This document shows, piece after piece, positions 6,816 through 28,621 of a stretch of 64,000 bases of DNA. The stretch lies in the IMG/VR virus record IMGVR_UViG_3300033181_000231; one strand, given 5' to 3'. Position 1 is the first letter of the stretch; every line of letters starts with the position of its first letter. A program made the translations under genes and the position numbers. Below the pieces are notes generated by a model. The model had not been told where the DNA came from, made no database searches, and saw only the letters and a program-made list of their open reading frames with translations. Origin of the DNA: a virus.

Positions 6816-8232
6816 TCTCTACGCGTTCATGCGGCAGGCGTGGCACGTCGTTGAACCCGTGCGCCCGTTCGTGGACGCGTGGCACCTACAGGCCATCGCG
6901 GAGCACCTGGAAGCGGTCACGCGCGGCGAGATCCGTAACCTCGTCATCAACATCGCGCCGGGCATGGCGAAGTCGCTGACCGTCTCGGTCTTCTGGCCGG
7001 TATGGGAGTGGATCGCGCACCCTGAGCGGCGCTGGCTCTACAGTTCCTACGCCCTGTCCCTCTCCATGCGCGACAGCCTCAAGTGCCGGCGCATCATTGA
7101 GTCGCCGTGGTATCGGGAGCGGTGGGGTGACGTTTTCCAGTTGCGGGATGACCAGAACGCCAAACTGAAGTTCGAGAATGACCGCACGGGCTATCGTCTG
7201 GCGACATCGGTGGGGGGAACCGTCACCGGAGAAAGGGCCGATCGTGTTGTTGTTGATGACCCACACAACCTCCTAGAAGCGGCCAGCGATGTCAAGCGCA
7301 TGGAGGCGATCACATGGTGGGACGAGGCGATGTCCACGCGCCTTAACGACTTCAAGACCGGGGCGCGCGTCATTGTCATGCAGCGCCTGCACGAAGAGGA
7401 CCTGTCGGGGCACGTCCTGGCGCGCGGCGGCTATGACCATCTGTGCTTGCCCACGGAGTACGACCCGTCACGCAACGTGACGACCTCCATCGGCTTCCGT
7501 GACCCGCGCACGGTCGAGGGTGAACTTCTGGCTCCAGCGCTGTTTGGCCCTGAGCAGAACGAACAGCAAAAGAAAGACCTGGGGCCATACGGCTACGCGG
7601 GCCAGCACGGGCAGACCCCGGCGCCGCGCACGGGTGGCATGTTTCAGATGCAGTGGTTCCGGGCCGAACAGGCCGCGCCCGCGTCGTTCGTGGCCGTCGT
7701 GCGCTATTGGGACAAAGCGGGTGCCGCGCCCGGCAAAGGCGACTGGACCGTGGGTGTCCTGATGGGGCGCACCTGGGACGGCTACTACTGGATTTTGGAT
7801 GTTGTCCGGGGGCAGTGGCCCAGCAATGAGCGGAACAGCGTCATCCTCGAGACGGCAAAGGTGGACGCAACGCGCTATCCCGGCATGAAGACGTGGGTGG
7901 AGCAGCCGCCTGGCCTCGGTAAGGAGAGCACCGACGCCGTGGTCCGCCTGCTGGCGGGTTACAACGTGCAGGCTGATCCCGCCCACGGCACAAAAGAGGA
8001 TCGCGCCGAGCCCGTGTCGAGCCAACTGCGCGCGGGCAACGTCCGTATGATTGAAGCGGACTGGAACGGCCCGTACCTCGCGGTCATGTGTCCGTTTCCG
8101 GCTGGGCGCCACGATGACGATGTGGACGCCACGAGCGGCGCGTTTAACAAGCTCGCCGTTGAATCCTACGACCCCAACGCGTTCGGCACGGCGGGCGGCC
8201 GCGCTGAGGTGGACGCCTATCGGGTGTATTAG
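6742..8232 (+). CDS. terL: Terminase large subunit
   Basis: Walker A-like 'NIAPGMAKS', Walker B 'VVVDDPH', 'IVMQRLHEEDL', nuclease 'RYWDKA...DWTVG' and 'HDDDVDA'. Exact start uncertain. Confidence 0.95.
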   Translation: MSASTHALLDVPSPEEIRAERARRSLYAFMRQAWHVVEPVRPFVDAWHLQAIAEHLEAVTRGEIRNLVINIAPGMAKSLTVSVFWPVWEWIAHPERRWLYSSYALSLSMRDSLKCRRIIESPWYRERWGDVFQLRDDQNAKLKFENDRTGYRLATSVGGTVTGERADRVVVDDPHNLLEAASDVKRMEAITWWDEAMSTRLNDFKTGARVIVMQRLHEEDLSGHVLARGGYDHLCLPTEYDPSRNVTTSIGFRDPRTVEGELLAPALFGPEQNEQQKKDLGPYGYAGQHGQTPAPRTGGMFQMQWFRAEQAAPASFVAVVRYWDKAGAAPGKGDWTVGVLMGRTWDGYYWILDVVRGQWPSNERNSVILETAKVDATRYPGMKTWVEQPPGLGKESTDAVVRLLAGYNVQADPAHGTKEDRAEPVSSQLRAGNVRMIEADWNGPYLAVMCPFPAGRHDDDVDATSGAFNKLAVESYDPNAFGTAGGRAEVDAYRVY

Positions 8233-9911: not shown

Positions 9912-10151
9912 ATGCCGAACAGGGCACAATCGGCCGCGACGCTGCACGCCGAGATCGGTGCGGCGACCTACAGCGCGCCGCCGTCGGCGACGCACGCCCA
10001 AATCCTGGCCGCCCTGCGTGCTGAGGGCGTCCTGGACGCGACGGGAGCCTACAGGACGGGCAAGGGGATGGCCGACGTGGTGCGCGCCGTCACGGTCCCC
10101 TCGGTGACGCAAGAAACGTTAGAACGCCTGCTGAAAGCGCGGGGGATTTAA
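9912..10151 (+). CDS. Hypothetical protein
   Basis: GAGGA RBS. Compact ORF in operon direction. Confidence 0.6.
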   Translation: MPNRAQSAATLHAEIGAATYSAPPSATHAQILAALRAEGVLDATGAYRTGKGMADVVRAVTVPSVTQETLERLLKARGI

Positions 10152-10153
10152 CC

Positions 10154-10423
10154 ATGACTGACGCCGCTGATCGATTGTACGACGCGTTGGTCGGCATCCA
10201 GCAGGCGCGCGGGCGCGCGGTGTTGGGGGAGATCGATGTGCTGGACGCGGCGCATAACGCGGGCTTGCCGCGATTGATCAATCGCGACGACGCCGCCGAT
10301 GTCAACCGCGCGTTCTGGGAATTGGACGCGCGGGGAGCCATTGTCTTGATGGCCAGGGGTACAGTCCCCATCACGTTTACCCTCGTGCCCCGGCTAGATC
10401 CGGCGCACTCCGCTGTTCGGTGA
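10154..10423 (+). CDS. Hypothetical protein (possible winged helix)
   Basis: Coupled to the upstream ORF. 'RAFWELDARGAIVL' is wHTH-like. Confidence 0.5.
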   Translation: MTDAADRLYDALVGIQQARGRAVLGEIDVLDAAHNAGLPRLINRDDAADVNRAFWELDARGAIVLMARGTVPITFTLVPRLDPAHSAVR

Positions 10424-10458
10424 CTACTCCCACGGGTAAACCCCGTGGGAGTAGTCAC
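10420..10458. repeat. Perfect 17-bp inverted repeat resembling IS200/IS605 right-end motifs; also a likely bidirectional terminator
   Basis: GTGACTACTCCCACGGG-TAAAC-CCCGTGGGAGTAGTCAC between convergent genes. Confidence 0.75.
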
Positions 10459-10473
10459 AGGTCAGTTGCGCCA

Positions 10474-10980
10474 TTAGGACACCACCATCTTGGCGATATG
10501 TGTGAACGTCTTGTCAATCATCAGCGCGACACCGTCGGGGATAAACAGGTCGAGCGACCGTTGCCCTGACAGCGAGAGGTACGCGCGGTCGTAGACGGCC
10601 AATTGGGGCAGCGCCATCGCGCGCAGGATGTGGTTAGCGGCGTCCTCATCCTCCATCGCGGAACCAGAGACGCGCTTGCCATACACGTCGGCGCGATTGG
10701 TAGTGCGTAGCAGATGATTGAGAGTGCCGCGATTGAGGTAGACCAGCGCGAAGCGATCAAATGGCGACGGTTCCCGTTGATCGCGCGGATACGAAGCGGT
10801 AACGGTCGCGATGTCGTGCAGCGGCGTGGCTGCGGCACTGTTTGTCCAGGGGACGACCGCCTGGTACCTCCACGCGACACGGCCCGTGATGACGGCGCTC
10901 GTACAGGCAAGGATTAATCCGTTTTCCAGACGCTCCGCTTCCAGCGCCCTATAATAACTTTCCCGCTGCTCCGTCGCCAT
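10474..10980 (-). CDS. Truncated paralog of the major capsid protein (A-domain region), antisense to the head operon
   Basis: AAGGAG RBS. Colinear motifs shared with the 14984-16012 MCP: VPW..A.ATPL.D, FD..A..Y.N..T.N..L..TN.AD.YG.RV.G, LP....YD..YL, LFIPD. Confidence 0.85.
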   Translation of the reverse strand: MATEQRESYYRALEAERLENGLILACTSAVITGRVAWRYQAVVPWTNSAAATPLHDIATVTASYPRDQREPSPFDRFALVYLNRGTLNHLLRTTNRADVYGKRVSGSAMEDEDAANHILRAMALPQLAVYDRAYLSLSGQRSLDLFIPDGVALMIDKTFTHIAKMVVS

Positions 10981-11076
10981 AGATGCTCCTTGGAGAAACA
11001 GACAACTCTACCCGCAGTATAAGCGCGTGTACGCACGCGCGATGCGCGTTATGCAACACCTCGTTAAGGGGGCGCC

Positions 11077-13896
11077 ATGCCTGACAAGGACGCCTCTTAA
11101 CGCTGGATCACCTGTCATCCGCATGGCGATGACGGTCCCGGCCGACCTGTCCTGCTTAACAGCGACGGCACGATCGCGGGCGGCATGGGCGGCAAGTTCA
11201 ACGGCCAGAAGATCGGTGAGATCTACAAAGGCGGCGACGCCAGGACGCCCACGGCGTCGGGCGGCGCGGCGGGCGTGCCCAACACGCTGGCGCATCCGTC
11301 ACACAACGCGCACGCGGCCGATTACGCCGACCTGGGGCCGGAGATGGCCCCCACGGTCTACGGCACACCGACGCACGCGGACGGCGCGTGGCGTCTGCAC
11401 CTGCGTAACCAACACCTCGTGGACGCCGCAATGGAGGGCGACCGTCAAACCCTCTCCGGCCACCACTTCGACCTGCATCCCGACGGTGGCGTGATCTACT
11501 ACGTCCCCGGCGAAAGTGGCCCCGAGGGCTACACCGACTCCGCGCACGCCATGGCCATCGACGTGGGCGCGAAAGTGGCCGACCGCATGGCCATCGCCCA
11601 CGAGCGCACCATGCAGGCCGCCCAAAAAAAGGGCTACGTCCCGGACGAGCCTGACTTCGGTGATTTTGAGTGGCACGGCGAGGACCATCCGGGCGATGAC
11701 GACGCGGCTATGCGGGACTACGCCGCCGAGACAACCGCCGAACTGGCGCGTCACCGCGCATCCTCGCTCAAGGACGTGCGCGACTTCATCCGGCATGAGG
11801 GCGGCATCGCACCCCACACCCGGAAAGCGGGCGACAAGACGGACCCGCGCCGGAGCGACGAATATTTGAAACTTCCGTCGCACTTAAAAAATGAGCGCGG
11901 CCTGACGCTGGATCAGATGGCCGGCATGATCGCCGAGAAGTACCCCGGCCTGGGGATCGAAACGGAGAACGACTTGCACGACTACCTCACGTCTACCGAA
12001 CGCGAACGTAAGGGCGGCTACACCAAAGCGCGCATGAGTCGTCCCCGCCTTGCGCCCGGCTCCTACGTTCAGTGGGCCGACTCATCAGGCGCCGGTAAGG
12101 GCCGTATCGCCAGCGTCCACCGCGATGAGGTCGTGCCCAACGTGTTCGACGGGCGCGTGCGCGGATCGGCCGACGACCCCGCCGCGCGCATCCGCGTCCA
12201 TGAGAAGCACGGCGACGGGTGGCGACCGACCGACCGCTACGTCGGCCGCCTCTTTAGCGGCGTCTACGGCATCGGGGCCTTGTCGCGCCCCTCAACCGAC
12301 CCCGACCACGACGGCGACGATGACACGCCCGGCGCGGGCGGCGACACCGACCACGACGCGGGCGCGTCCCCCGCGTCGCTGTCAGCCACGCCGGCGGCGG
12401 CCCTATCGACCGACCTGACGATAGACACGACCCATCCAACGCACCCAGGAGGCATGATGCGCGCCGAGTTCAGCGCCGACCCCGTGGGGGTGACGGCCGA
12501 CGGCATGGTCGTCTTGCGCGGCAAGGCGTTCGCGGCCGGAGCCTACCCCGACAAAAACCTGACGGTAACGCCCGAGCAGTTATGGGACATCATCGCGCGC
12601 TTCGATGCGCCCGTCCCCATGAACCTCGCCCACCGCCATTCCGACGCCCTAGCGGGCCACCTGGGTGGCCTGGTGGACATGTGGGCGGACGACGACGGCG
12701 CGAGCCTGATGGTCACGTCCCATAAACCCGCATGGCTGCACGCGCTGATGCCTGAGTCGCGCGTCTCGGTGGAGATCCCCCTCGACACCGACGAGCCGCG
12801 CATCACGGGCTGCGCCTGGACCTCGACCCCGCGCGTCCCCGACGCCCAGTTGGTCGCGGCTTTCTCGTCGTTTGAGCGGCGCGTGGAGGGCCAGGGCGGC
12901 GCGGAGGGCGCGGGTGGGGCACGGACCCCGCGCCCTCCTCAAAAGCCGCGTGGCGGGCTGCTGGGCGCGTTTGCGGGCGCACGGCACGACACGCGGTCGG
13001 GCCGGATGCGCCTTCAGGAGATGCACGACATGGCGGTGTCGGCGGGCGCGGTCTGCCGCGCCCCCGGCACGGCCAGCATGTCCAGCGCCCACGAGGCCAA
13101 GGGCATCCAGGCCATCCACGACGTATCGGTCGCGCACGGCGCGACCTGCGACGCGCAAGCGATCACGCCGGCCGACGCGTCGCGGCCACTGTACGGCATG
13201 TTCGACCAGCGACCGACCAGCGGCGGGGTGTCCGGCCGCGCGACGACGAACGGCGGGAGCCGTAGGGAGACACGCGGGACCATGAATCTACTCGACTGGA
13301 TCAAGGGCAAGGCGGCGGAAGACGGTCTGGACGTACAGGACGAGGACATCCGCGCGCAGTTCAGCGCCGGCCCCGATCCCAAGGTGGCCGCGCTTGATAC
13401 GGCGCACAAGGAGCAGGCGGCGCTCTTCGCGGCGTCCGAGCAGGAGCGCGCGGCGCAGGCGGCCGAGATCGCGACATTGAAAGAGGACCGTGCGAAAGAG
13501 AAGCGGGCGCGCATCGAGGCCGAGGCCGCGCACTTCGCGGACACGCAGATCGACGCCAAGCGCGCCCTGCCGGCCGAGCGCGAGGCGGCCATCGCCCTCT
13601 ACGTGCAGGCGGCGCTCGATGATGCGGAGACCCAGGGCAAGACGGCGGCGTTCAGCGACGGCGCGAGCCGCGTCTCGGCGCTGGTGGGGGCCTACGCGGC
13701 GCGCGTCCCGCACCAGTTGACGCAGGAGATGCTCAAAGACGTGGACCTCCAGGCGCTGTTTAGCCAGCAGCAGCAAGCCGGGGTGGACGATAAGGCCAAA
13801 GTCAAGCCCGAGACGCGGCGCGACCTTCTGTCGCGCACGGCCGAGGGCCGCGCCATCCTCGACCAGGAAGAGAAGGCCACCCGCGCCGGGAAGTAG
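11077..13896 (+). pseudogene. Large head protein (N-terminal accessory domains + Mu-I-like prohead protease + scaffold) with in-frame TAA at codon 8
   Basis: RBS AAGGGGG, then ATG 11077 MPDKDAS*RWITCHPHGDDGPGRPVLLNSDGTIAGGMGGKFNG, continuing in frame with the 903-aa ORF. Internal RBS+ATG at 12454 and 13282. Confidence 0.6.
12454..13896 (+). CDS. Prohead protease/scaffold (Mu I/Z-like), probably translated from an internal start; nested scaffold start at 13282
   Basis: GGAGG 3-4 nt before ATGATG. 'AFAAGAYPDK...PMNLAHRHS...RVSVEI...ITGCAWTSTPRV'. C-terminal charged helical scaffold. Confidence 0.7.
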   Translation: MMRAEFSADPVGVTADGMVVLRGKAFAAGAYPDKNLTVTPEQLWDIIARFDAPVPMNLAHRHSDALAGHLGGLVDMWADDDGASLMVTSHKPAWLHALMPESRVSVEIPLDTDEPRITGCAWTSTPRVPDAQLVAAFSSFERRVEGQGGAEGAGGARTPRPPQKPRGGLLGAFAGARHDTRSGRMRLQEMHDMAVSAGAVCRAPGTASMSSAHEAKGIQAIHDVSVAHGATCDAQAITPADASRPLYGMFDQRPTSGGVSGRATTNGGSRRETRGTMNLLDWIKGKAAEDGLDVQDEDIRAQFSAGPDPKVAALDTAHKEQAALFAASEQERAAQAAEIATLKEDRAKEKRARIEAEAAHFADTQIDAKRALPAEREAAIALYVQAALDDAETQGKTAAFSDGASRVSALVGAYAARVPHQLTQEMLKDVDLQALFSQQQQAGVDDKAKVKPETRRDLLSRTAEGRAILDQEEKATRAGK

Positions 13897-14983: not shown

Positions 14984-16012
14984 GTGGCATATATCCTCCC
15001 GACCTCCGTTGAACTGATGGAGATTGCACAGGATCTCATCCCCCGCTTGCAGCAAGACCGCGCGATCTTCGACCTCATGCCGATGCGCGACAGCGACCGC
15101 GCGTTCGTCGAGTGGGACCAACGTGACAGCTTCACCGGCCTCCAGCAGATCCGCGGCTTGGGCGGCGAGCCCGTGCGCGTACAGAAGTTGGGCGCCAAAC
15201 GCTACCGCATGCAGCCCGGCATCTACGGGGAGTTCGAGCGGTTCGACGAGACCGAATTGACCGAGTACCGTGTCCCCGGCTCGTTCGATCGCCCCATCGA
15301 CCTGCGCGACATGGTGATGGGGTCGCAGATGCGTTTGCTGGAGCGCCGCCTCGACCGCATCGAGCAGGTCGGGTGGGCCAGCCTTCAGGGGCAGATCGCC
15401 GTGGCGCAGATGCTCCCCGGCGGCGCCAGCACCATCATGTACGCCGACACGTTCAGTGTGCAGGCGTTCACGGCGACGGTTCCGTGGGGCACGTTCGCCA
15501 GCGCCACGCCGCTGGCCGACTTTCGTAACACGAAGCTGCTGGCCCGTGGACACTCGGTCGTGTTCGACGACACGGCTAGGGCGTACACGAATCAGAGCAC
15601 CATCAACAAGATGCTGTCCAACACGAACAACGCCGACCTCTACGGTCGCCGCGTGACGGGCCTCGCCACGGCCAACAGCCTAGAAGGCGTCAACTCGCTC
15701 TTTCTAGCCGATGGCCTGCCGCGGATTATCGCCTACGATCAGACGTATCTCGACGACACCGGCGCGTACCAGTTGTTCATCCCAGACAACACGGTCATCA
15801 TCGTCGGACGGCGTCCCGGCAACGTCCCCGTCGCGGAGTACCTCTTCACACGCAACGTCAACAACCCCGGCTTCGCCCCCGGTCCGTACATGGACGTGGT
15901 CGACCGCCTGACCCAGGGTGGACAGTACCCGCGTACCATCGATATCCATGACGGGCATAATGGAGGAATTGCCCTCCTCTATCCATCGGCCGTGGTGGTA
16001 ATGCACGTCTAA
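14984..16012 (+). CDS. Major capsid protein (phage capsid E/HK97 fold)
   Basis: CAGGAG RBS, 342 aa, follows the decoration gene. 'RIEQVGWASLQG', 'LFIPDNTVIIVG', C-terminal 'GIALLYPSAVVVMHV'. Confidence 0.9.
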   Translation: MAYILPTSVELMEIAQDLIPRLQQDRAIFDLMPMRDSDRAFVEWDQRDSFTGLQQIRGLGGEPVRVQKLGAKRYRMQPGIYGEFERFDETELTEYRVPGSFDRPIDLRDMVMGSQMRLLERRLDRIEQVGWASLQGQIAVAQMLPGGASTIMYADTFSVQAFTATVPWGTFASATPLADFRNTKLLARGHSVVFDDTARAYTNQSTINKMLSNTNNADLYGRRVTGLATANSLEGVNSLFLADGLPRIIAYDQTYLDDTGAYQLFIPDNTVIIVGRRPGNVPVAEYLFTRNVNNPGFAPGPYMDVVDRLTQGGQYPRTIDIHDGHNGGIALLYPSAVVVMHV

Positions 16013-28291: not shown

Positions 28292-28621
28292 TCAGGCGAT
28301 ACCGGGGGCGAGCGTGAGATGGCGTCGGGCATGAGGTGAGCGGCGGCGGGGCCGTGCGGTCGTGCGCCTGCCGCGCAGCAGGCGCAGCCGCGTCCTGTCC
28401 GCGTGATAGGCGCGACTCTCATGCGCCGCGTCCGTACACGCGCGCTGGAGCACGTCCTCGTGCGCGCTAACGATAAACGCGAGGAGCACGGCCGCTCCGG
28501 GCGAGTCGGGCGAGCCCGCGAGCGCCTCCGTCACGATCCGCGCGATGCTACCCTCTCTCCCGTTGACTTGGACGAACCGCCGCGCCTGATCCGCGGTAAA
28601 GAGCGGAGCGTGCTCGTTCAT
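28292..28621 (-). CDS. Hypothetical protein
   Basis: GGAGG RBS. Part of the leftward operon. Confidence 0.55.
   Translation of the reverse strand: MNEHAPLFTADQARRFVQVNGREGSIARIVTEALAGSPDSPGAAVLLAFIVSAHEDVLQRACTDAAHESRAYHADRTRLRLLRGRRTTARPRRRSPHARRHLTLAPGIA

Follow-up and report, generated by a model that had tools for sequence, protein, structure and literature searches.

Why should a temperate phage carry, within its head module but on the opposite strand, a free-standing piece of a capsid protein? The question is raised by a stretch of 64,000 nucleotides (hereafter the window), an IMG/VR provirus (record IMGVR_UViG_3300033181_000231) from a rock microbial community, whose host is uncultured. 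Since the record is classed as a provirus and the phage encodes a tyrosine integrase together with a CI-like HTH gene, we take the phage to be temperate. A preliminary description of the window had proposed that one of its antisense open reading frames encodes a fragment of the phage's own major capsid protein (MCP). The features needed for the comparison are the following:

10474 to 10980 (stop codon included), minus strand: 168-aa open reading frame, a free-standing HK97-fold A-domain gene
10986 to 10991, minus strand: Shine-Dalgarno sequence AAGGAG, 5 nt before the ATG, as read from the sequence
14984 to 16012, plus strand: full-length MCP (lambda gpE type), the paralogue with which the short protein is compared

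The short frame begins with ATG and is intact, and its GC content of 0.63, 0.46 and 0.73 at the three codon positions is a coding signature. A reading of the sequence bears out what had been said of it at the outset, namely that the frame is intact, lies on the opposite strand and has its own AAGGAG ribosome-binding site. The product of the longer gene matches Pfam PF03864 (Phage_cap_E, E 4e-12) and PHROG 29 (major head protein). Aligned to this MCP by BLASTP, the 168-aa protein gives an E-value of 5e-20, with 37% identity over 120 colinear residues, such that residues 39-157 of the fragment correspond to residues 162-276 of the MCP. A profile of 13 short proteins, compared by hhalign with a profile of 40 full-length MCPs, yields a probability of 99.9% and an E-value of 3.5e-35. 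The colinear alignment claimed in the preliminary description is thus confirmed by both methods, and the homology of the 168-aa protein to the Phage_cap_E capsid proteins is significant.

The protein itself falls below the PF03864 threshold, and a Pfam HMM search returns no match for it at E 0.01. Neither Pfam nor PHROG holds a family that matches the short protein or the cassette genes of its relatives (described below). The PADLOC-DB 2.0 defence models give no match at E 0.01 among the fragment, four of its homologues and five cassette proteins, and the Protein Atlas offers no usable match for the 168-aa protein and only a poor single-sequence model.

Which elements of the capsid protein are kept, and which are lost? 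In a joint MAFFT alignment, the N-terminal 35 residues of the fragment fall on MCP residues ~113-158, which comprise the end of the spine helix and the part that follows it; the core of the fragment falls on MCP residues 159-279; and its C-terminus (the last 8 residues, THIAKMVVS) falls on the final MCP strand, SAVVVMHV. Missing altogether are MCP residues 1-112, which form the N-arm, the E-loop and the first strands of the P-domain, and residues ~280-333, which contain the P-domain strands E284-331. The AlphaFold2 model of the MCP (pLDDT 92) shows the complete HK97 fold. The model of the 168-aa protein (pLDDT 89.2, pTM 0.83) consists of a long N-terminal helix at residues 2-32, with pLDDT 74-83, followed by helices and strands that correspond one for one to elements H176-187 through E270-274 and E337-341 of the MCP model. 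The fold comparison therefore yields a spine helix plus an A-domain, and the 168-aa protein does not possess the full set of shell- and capsomer-forming elements that make up the complete HK97 fold.

The fragment had at first been described as lacking the N-terminal third and the C-terminal strands of the MCP. This is right as regards the ~112 N-terminal residues and the strands of the P-domain, but not as regards the final C-terminal strand, which is retained both in the alignment and in the model. Because that strand is aligned and modelled, the fragment is an internally deleted spine-helix-plus-A-domain rather than a simple middle piece of the capsid protein. As predicted by the model, the 168-aa product is a cleanly excised unit of half the spine helix and the A-domain.

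Structural searches agree with this assignment. The best Foldseek matches of the fragment model in both the PDB and the AFDB are HK97-fold capsid proteins. By VIA-align, the model attains a Z-score of 11.3 against BB3626 (3bjq, residues 101-311), 7.8-8.3 against lambda gpE (8k39 and 7sj5; residues 107-341 of 8k39), and, for residues 47-168 of the fragment, 6.3 against PF0899 (2pk8), with 86 of 94 residues aligned. Within the common region the fragment keeps 14 of the 18 invariant or nearly invariant MCP columns, including W45, P53, N83, N95, D98, G101, P125 and D131. The invariant 'RG.S' loop of the MCPs is exactly the part that has turned variable in the short proteins. A complex prediction for the phage's own MCP with the fragment scored 0.00, which weighs neither for nor against binding.

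We assembled homologues from a search of 5.8 billion proteins and from an exhaustive search of representatives. The former returned four proteins of 169-170 aa, with 52-54% identity to the 168-aa protein. The latter added P0006 (53%), P0007 (46%), P0009 (30%) and P0014 (32%), along with ~110 full-length MCPs, all of which were matched at residues ~160-280. A profile search of the 5.8-billion set found no new family members, the genome contig set held no relatives, and in the viral contig set only two contigs showed the fragment pattern. In total, intact homologues of 168-183 aa occur in at least eight distinct phage lineages, at identities down to 27%. Two repeat proteins of 549-605 aa (P0040 and P0127) also appeared among the matches and were rejected as spurious. 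Among the papers that we searched, none describes a family of free-standing A-domains in tailed phages.

A maximum-likelihood tree built on the shared region groups ten short proteins in a single clade (SH-aLRT 93); every MCP, also that of a phage with a short gene, falls outside it. The fragment lies at about the same distance from its own MCP as from those of three related phages (28-41% identity). Its identity to the MCP of its own phage is 37-39%, and to the nearest other known MCP lineage at most 43%; in three of four phages the fragment is marginally closest to the MCP of the same phage, by a margin of only 2-4 residues. The separate clade and the similar distances to the MCPs of four phages rule out the earlier claim that the fragment derives from the phage's own MCP, and we likewise reject a recent copy of that gene. 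As judged from the tree, the short proteins are an old, separate clade of MCP paralogues. The gene product, a soluble and free-standing A-domain, descends from a lambda-E-type MCP by loss of the N-arm, the E-loop and the P-domain sheet.

Two further short lineages stand apart from this clade in the same tree. One of these comprises P0120 (L017:3290-3799) and its relative P0122, which are 169-174 aa long and branch among the full-length MCPs; the P0120 gene lies in a row of small genes on the same strand. The other is P0115 (L018:8001-8411, also found in L019), an independent 136-aa gene resembling the MCP A-domain, on the same strand as its neighbours. These neighbours encode Astacin and subtilisin (S8) peptidases and a protein with a Clp_N domain, and the locus may be a protease-centred accessory island.

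Has the gene been maintained by selection? By the Nei-Gojobori method, dN/dS between the window gene and its relatives is 0.15-0.33, values for which dS is saturated; over these long distances the gene is under purifying selection. Within a given pair of phages, the short proteins share 38-53% identity, and the corresponding part of the true MCPs shares 42-54%. Between the closest alleles (78-86% identity), dN/dS rises to 0.40-0.72, as compared with 0.20-0.28 for portal and protease on those contigs; since such close pairs contain few substitutions, this excess is only suggestive.

Across 14 alleles, most of the variation falls within the N-terminal helix and a single loop (residues ~59-75 of the 170-aa alleles, 57-73 of the window protein), which occurs in two alternative versions among alleles that are more than 80% identical. 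The last 60 residues, by comparison, are almost invariant. The new junction and last strand, LFIPDGVALMIDKTFTHI(V/A)KMVV, form a C-terminal block of 23 residues with one variable position in the five proteins of alignment A1, and among the 170-aa alleles this block is invariant but for single substitutions in three. Alignment A1, whose sequences are ~50% identical to the window protein, contains 72 invariant residues. We conclude that the A-domain gene is real and selectively maintained; it also evolves somewhat fast, with traits that are suggestive of an arms race.

The genomic position of the gene is constant. In every member of the main clade with a readable contig, the gene lies between a Portal_Mu gene and an S49 protease/scaffold gene. 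It is always on the opposite strand within the head module, where it is the first gene of an antisense cassette, and the starts of the A-domain gene and its divergent neighbour are 38-204 bp apart across the relatives. The genes behind it in the cassette differ from phage to phage, and in the window it has no cassette partner at all, standing alone between a putative promoter and a hairpin.

The contents of the cassettes are varied. Small genes usually follow the A-domain gene in the relatives, often including one with an 'LDQRR...TRWWFE' domain. In L009, and also in L010, two A-domain genes with 31% mutual identity stand in tandem within one antisense cassette (L009:414-926 and L009:1114-1635), and in L009 they are separated by a 63-aa 'TRWWFE' gene. 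P0006 (L020:8001-8711) has a Zn-ribbon-like N-domain (W.CD..GDWCP.H) fused to its A-domain; at L046:7832-8245 (minus strand) and L012:7476-7886, this N-domain (60% identity, E 1e-23) is joined to an 'LDQRR...TRWWFE' domain, and the latter domain stands alone behind the A-domain gene in L007 and L009. On sequence grounds we read these arrangements as domain shuffling between cassette genes. In one subgroup, a 70-aa CxxC...CxxC gene is directly divergent from the A-domain gene, with 38-51 bp between the start codons:

L001:1134-1406, minus strand: 70-aa CxxC...CxxC gene
L004:2833-3045, minus strand: 70-aa CxxC...CxxC gene
L007:2052-2264, minus strand: 70-aa CxxC...CxxC gene
L009:163-375, minus strand: 70-aa CxxC...CxxC gene

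This gene is lost together with the A-domain gene in L044 and L046, and kept in L031.

Some close relatives do without the A-domain gene. L044, L046 and L031 share 88-96% DNA identity with L004 and L007 in the protease and portal genes, and none of the three carries it. The 755 bp that carry the A-domain gene and its 70-aa Zn-ribbon neighbour in L007 give way to ~50 bp in L044; in L046, another gene occupies the position; and in L031, a degenerate sequence at 7519-7584 on the minus strand, ITPDGTVRVCDRTLTRLVT*, resembles the last ~20 codons of the A-domain gene and is probably a 3' remnant of it. Since this remnant lies where close relatives have the intact gene, it points to loss by deletion. 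The partner genes of the cassette are retained in relatives that have no A-domain gene. An alignment of portal proteins, used as a query, retrieved 27 further phage contigs, among them L044, L046 and L031; scanned with HMMs, 14 of them contained gpE-type MCPs and none the antisense short gene.

Given its absence from phages whose flanking genes are 88-96% identical, the A-domain gene is accessory (moron-like) and is not needed for building the head. We therefore reject an essential role in head assembly. MCP genes are essential and co-oriented with the late head operon, whereas this gene is antisense and missing from close relatives. The term moron denotes an additional phage gene equipped with expression signals of its own (Juhala et al. 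2000). The A-domain gene resembles morons in being present or absent among close phages between conserved genes (L007 and L004 versus L044, L046 and L031), and in having a composition unlike that of its neighbours: its GC content is 0.61, and its GC3 is 0.73, as against 0.81-0.91 in the terminase, portal, protease, decoration and MCP genes.

The candidate expression signals of the gene are as follows:

11015 to 11029, minus strand: conserved 15-mer CACGCGCTTATACTG with the -10-like TATACT (11021-11016), a probable promoter
11023 to 11040, no strand assigned: GC-rich dyad GCGCGTG-N4-CACGCGC over the -35 position, a possible operator
10413 to 10465, no strand assigned: strong hairpin between the convergent 89-aa plus-strand gene and the A-domain gene on the minus strand, probably a bidirectional terminator or an RNA-stabilising stem

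The homologue in L012-L014, with a protein only 44% identical, is preceded by an identical copy of the 15-mer CACGCGCTTATACTG at an equal distance, and the conservation around the 15-mer extends over about 45 nt. A similar dyad is present in L012. A near-copy of the dyad at 28426-28443 was considered as a shared operator and rejected, for it lies inside an open reading frame and is within chance expectation. The hairpin has a perfect stem of 17 bp (-42.3 kcal/mol, z -6.9) and no U-tract; it begins 8 nt past the stop codon of the A-domain gene, and it contains the stop codon of the plus-strand gene 10154-10423. The gene is flanked by putative signals, a -10-like 15-mer and dyad upstream and a hairpin of -42 kcal/mol downstream, although consensus scans at the locus call neither a full sigma-70 promoter nor a T-tail terminator. 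Since the sigma-70 scan calls no full promoter, we infer the one at CACGCGCTTATACTG; and since the sequencing runs that contain the stretch consist only of DNA from rock metagenomes, we infer the expression of the gene as well.

What, then, might a dispensable yet conserved A-domain be for? Most likely, the protein is a capsid mimic that serves against other phages or against the immunity of the host. In a fuller form of this idea, on which we are evenly divided, temperate phages keep a domesticated free A-domain as a weapon in conflicts over capsids. It would either poison the capsomers of superinfecting phages in a dominant-negative way or, by mimicry, blind receptors of the Avs7/8/10 type, for which the capsomer-forming face of this domain is the feature read; being antisense, the gene would be switched off during the phage's own assembly.

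Our best guess as to mechanism, a tentative one, is that the lysogen expresses this MCP mimic and thereby poisons the capsomer assembly of competing phages. The gene would be transcribed from its own putative promoter, against the late head genes. With such a promoter opposing the late genes, the protein would be made in the lysogen, while the late operon is silent, and opposing late transcription would shut the gene off when the prophage is induced. The invariant motifs that the protein keeps would line the capsomer-forming face, by which it could join or cap the capsomers that a superinfecting phage with a related MCP is forming. As a subunit with no elements that link capsomer to capsomer, it would have a dominant-negative effect and spoil the growing procapsid, and the superinfecting phage would be excluded at the assembly step.

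The accessory behaviour of the gene fits a role in conflict. The close-pair dN/dS, the two versions of the loop and the tandem paralogues of L009 are suggestive of an arms race. The temperate phage, the putative expression signals and the constant antisense position in the head module may also be counted in its favour. Against it, there is no obvious means by which the phage would escape poisoning its own capsids, late co-expression would account just as well for the close divergent pairing with the protease operon, and no PADLOC defence model was matched. Nor is a specific foreign target evident, since the fragment shows no greater likeness to any known MCP lineage than to the MCP of its own phage.

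The main rival to capsomer poisoning is a decoy for immune sensors: the free A-domain, showing the capsomer-forming face, would soak up or block MCP-sensing receptors and leave the real MCP unnoticed. A recent preprint reports that Avs7/8/10 bind the capsomer-forming face of the A-domain, and also quantifies Avs activation by truncated targets (bioRxiv 10.64898/2026.01.04.697583). A decoy would fit the accessory and polymorphic presence of the gene, its variable surface loop, tandem paralogues and raised dN/dS, as well as the independent short MCP-like genes found in non-structural contexts (P0115 and P0120). It would be needed during lytic growth, however, and the gene is head-on to the late operon, whose transcription should interfere; on general grounds, too, a free A-domain might trigger an Avs-type sensor rather than blunt it. 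We consider a decoy rather unlikely. Nor does the phage's own head offer an easy account, although the gene might be a non-essential helper of head assembly, expressed from a divergent late promoter in common with the protease/scaffold operon, its product serving to tune capsomer formation or, as a chaperone or shield, to cover transiently the A-domain face of MCP that is still unassembled. The strictly conserved position in the head module, divergent from the protease/scaffold gene at 38-204 bp, fits such a helper, and the long-term divergence of the short protein tracks that of the MCP, to which the fragment of the same phage is marginally closest in three of four cases. Yet near-identical phages do without the gene, its GC3 is below that of the head genes, it heads a cassette of variable and unrelated small genes, and the preference for the own MCP amounts to only 2-4 residues. 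We therefore regard a helper as unlikely.

The cassettes suggest another role, in which the A-domain protein is the bait or sensor subunit of a prophage abortive-infection module: it would co-assemble with the MCP of an invader and signal through partners encoded by the cassette or the host. The small genes that usually follow the A-domain gene in the relatives, often with the 'LDQRR...TRWWFE' domain, are consistent with such partners, and the Zn-ribbon-like N-domain, fused in P0006 to the A-domain and in L046 and L012 to the 'TRWWFE' domain, links the two. But the window gene stands without partners between its putative promoter and hairpin, relatives that have no A-domain gene still possess the partner genes, and no cassette gene that we examined has an effector-type domain; a bait subunit is in our view quite doubtful. 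Least probable by far is a functionless remnant of duplication or recombination of a capsid gene, open by chance. One might cite for it that the short protein has no match to a Pfam, PHROG or PADLOC family, that the dN/dS of the closest pairs is fairly high (0.4-0.7), and that some relatives have lost the gene. A remnant would hardly keep an intact frame and a conserved length in every lineage, even at 27% identity, or show 72 residues invariant in the five A1 sequences, a nearly identical C-terminal block of 23 residues, a long-range dN/dS of 0.15-0.33 and a confidently predicted fold, nor three deletions that take out exactly the elements outside the A-domain. A decaying duplicate, already largely refuted by the intact conserved frames and purifying selection, is rejected.

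With the lambda gpE-type MCPs (PF03864; 7sj5 and 8k39; BB3626, 3bjq) the A-domain protein shares clear homology, the same fold of spine helix and A-domain, and the same invariant A-domain motifs. Unlike them, it is half-size, antisense and dispensable, and forms a separate clade; and since it has no N-arm, E-loop or P-domain sheet, it cannot tile a shell. SaPIbov5 is a satellite whose Ccm, a full-length homologue of HK97-fold capsid proteins, redirects capsid assembly of the helper phage and is thought to help build small capsids. Ccm offers an analogy to the mechanism that we favour, in that a capsid homologue of a mobile element would interfere with the assembly of another phage. Whereas Ccm is full-length and encoded by a satellite, here the A-domain alone is encoded by a complete temperate phage, and the interference is putative.

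Fv1 and similar mammalian restriction factors derived from gag are domesticated capsid-derived proteins that act against related viruses. The likeness is one of concept, a capsid-derived protein possibly turned on related viruses; Fv1 is eukaryotic, binds incoming assembled cores (a step that is absent in tailed phages) and is unrelated in sequence and fold. PF0899/DUF1884 of Pyrococcus furiosus (2pk8) is likewise a free-standing fold that resembles the core of the HK97 A-domain, but it is an archaeal cellular protein with no detectable sequence similarity, and it does not evidently derive from a contemporary MCP.

Capsid proteins are major triggers of bacterial immunity, and highly multimeric shells are by their nature open to disruption by dominant-negative subunits. 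A gene that is dispensable, though conserved, and that specifies exactly the capsomer-forming domain, stripped of all the elements that link up a shell, is a ready-made probe of both ideas, and its product could be combined with capsid proteins and MCP-sensing receptors by co-expression.

The genes that flank the A-domain gene in the window also deserve mention. In place of the S49 protease/scaffold of the relatives, positions 11185-13896 on the plus strand encode a protein of 903 aa with no Pfam match, whose only match is a weak one to the PHROG 'head maturation protease' at residues 717-835. Its counterpart in L008 has 1199 aa and a weak match to 2',5' RNA ligase, and among these phages the protease/scaffold gene varies to an unusual degree. 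On the other side, two small plus-strand genes lie behind the portal gene, at 9912-10151 and 10154-10423, the first of which is conserved in L008 (48% identity).
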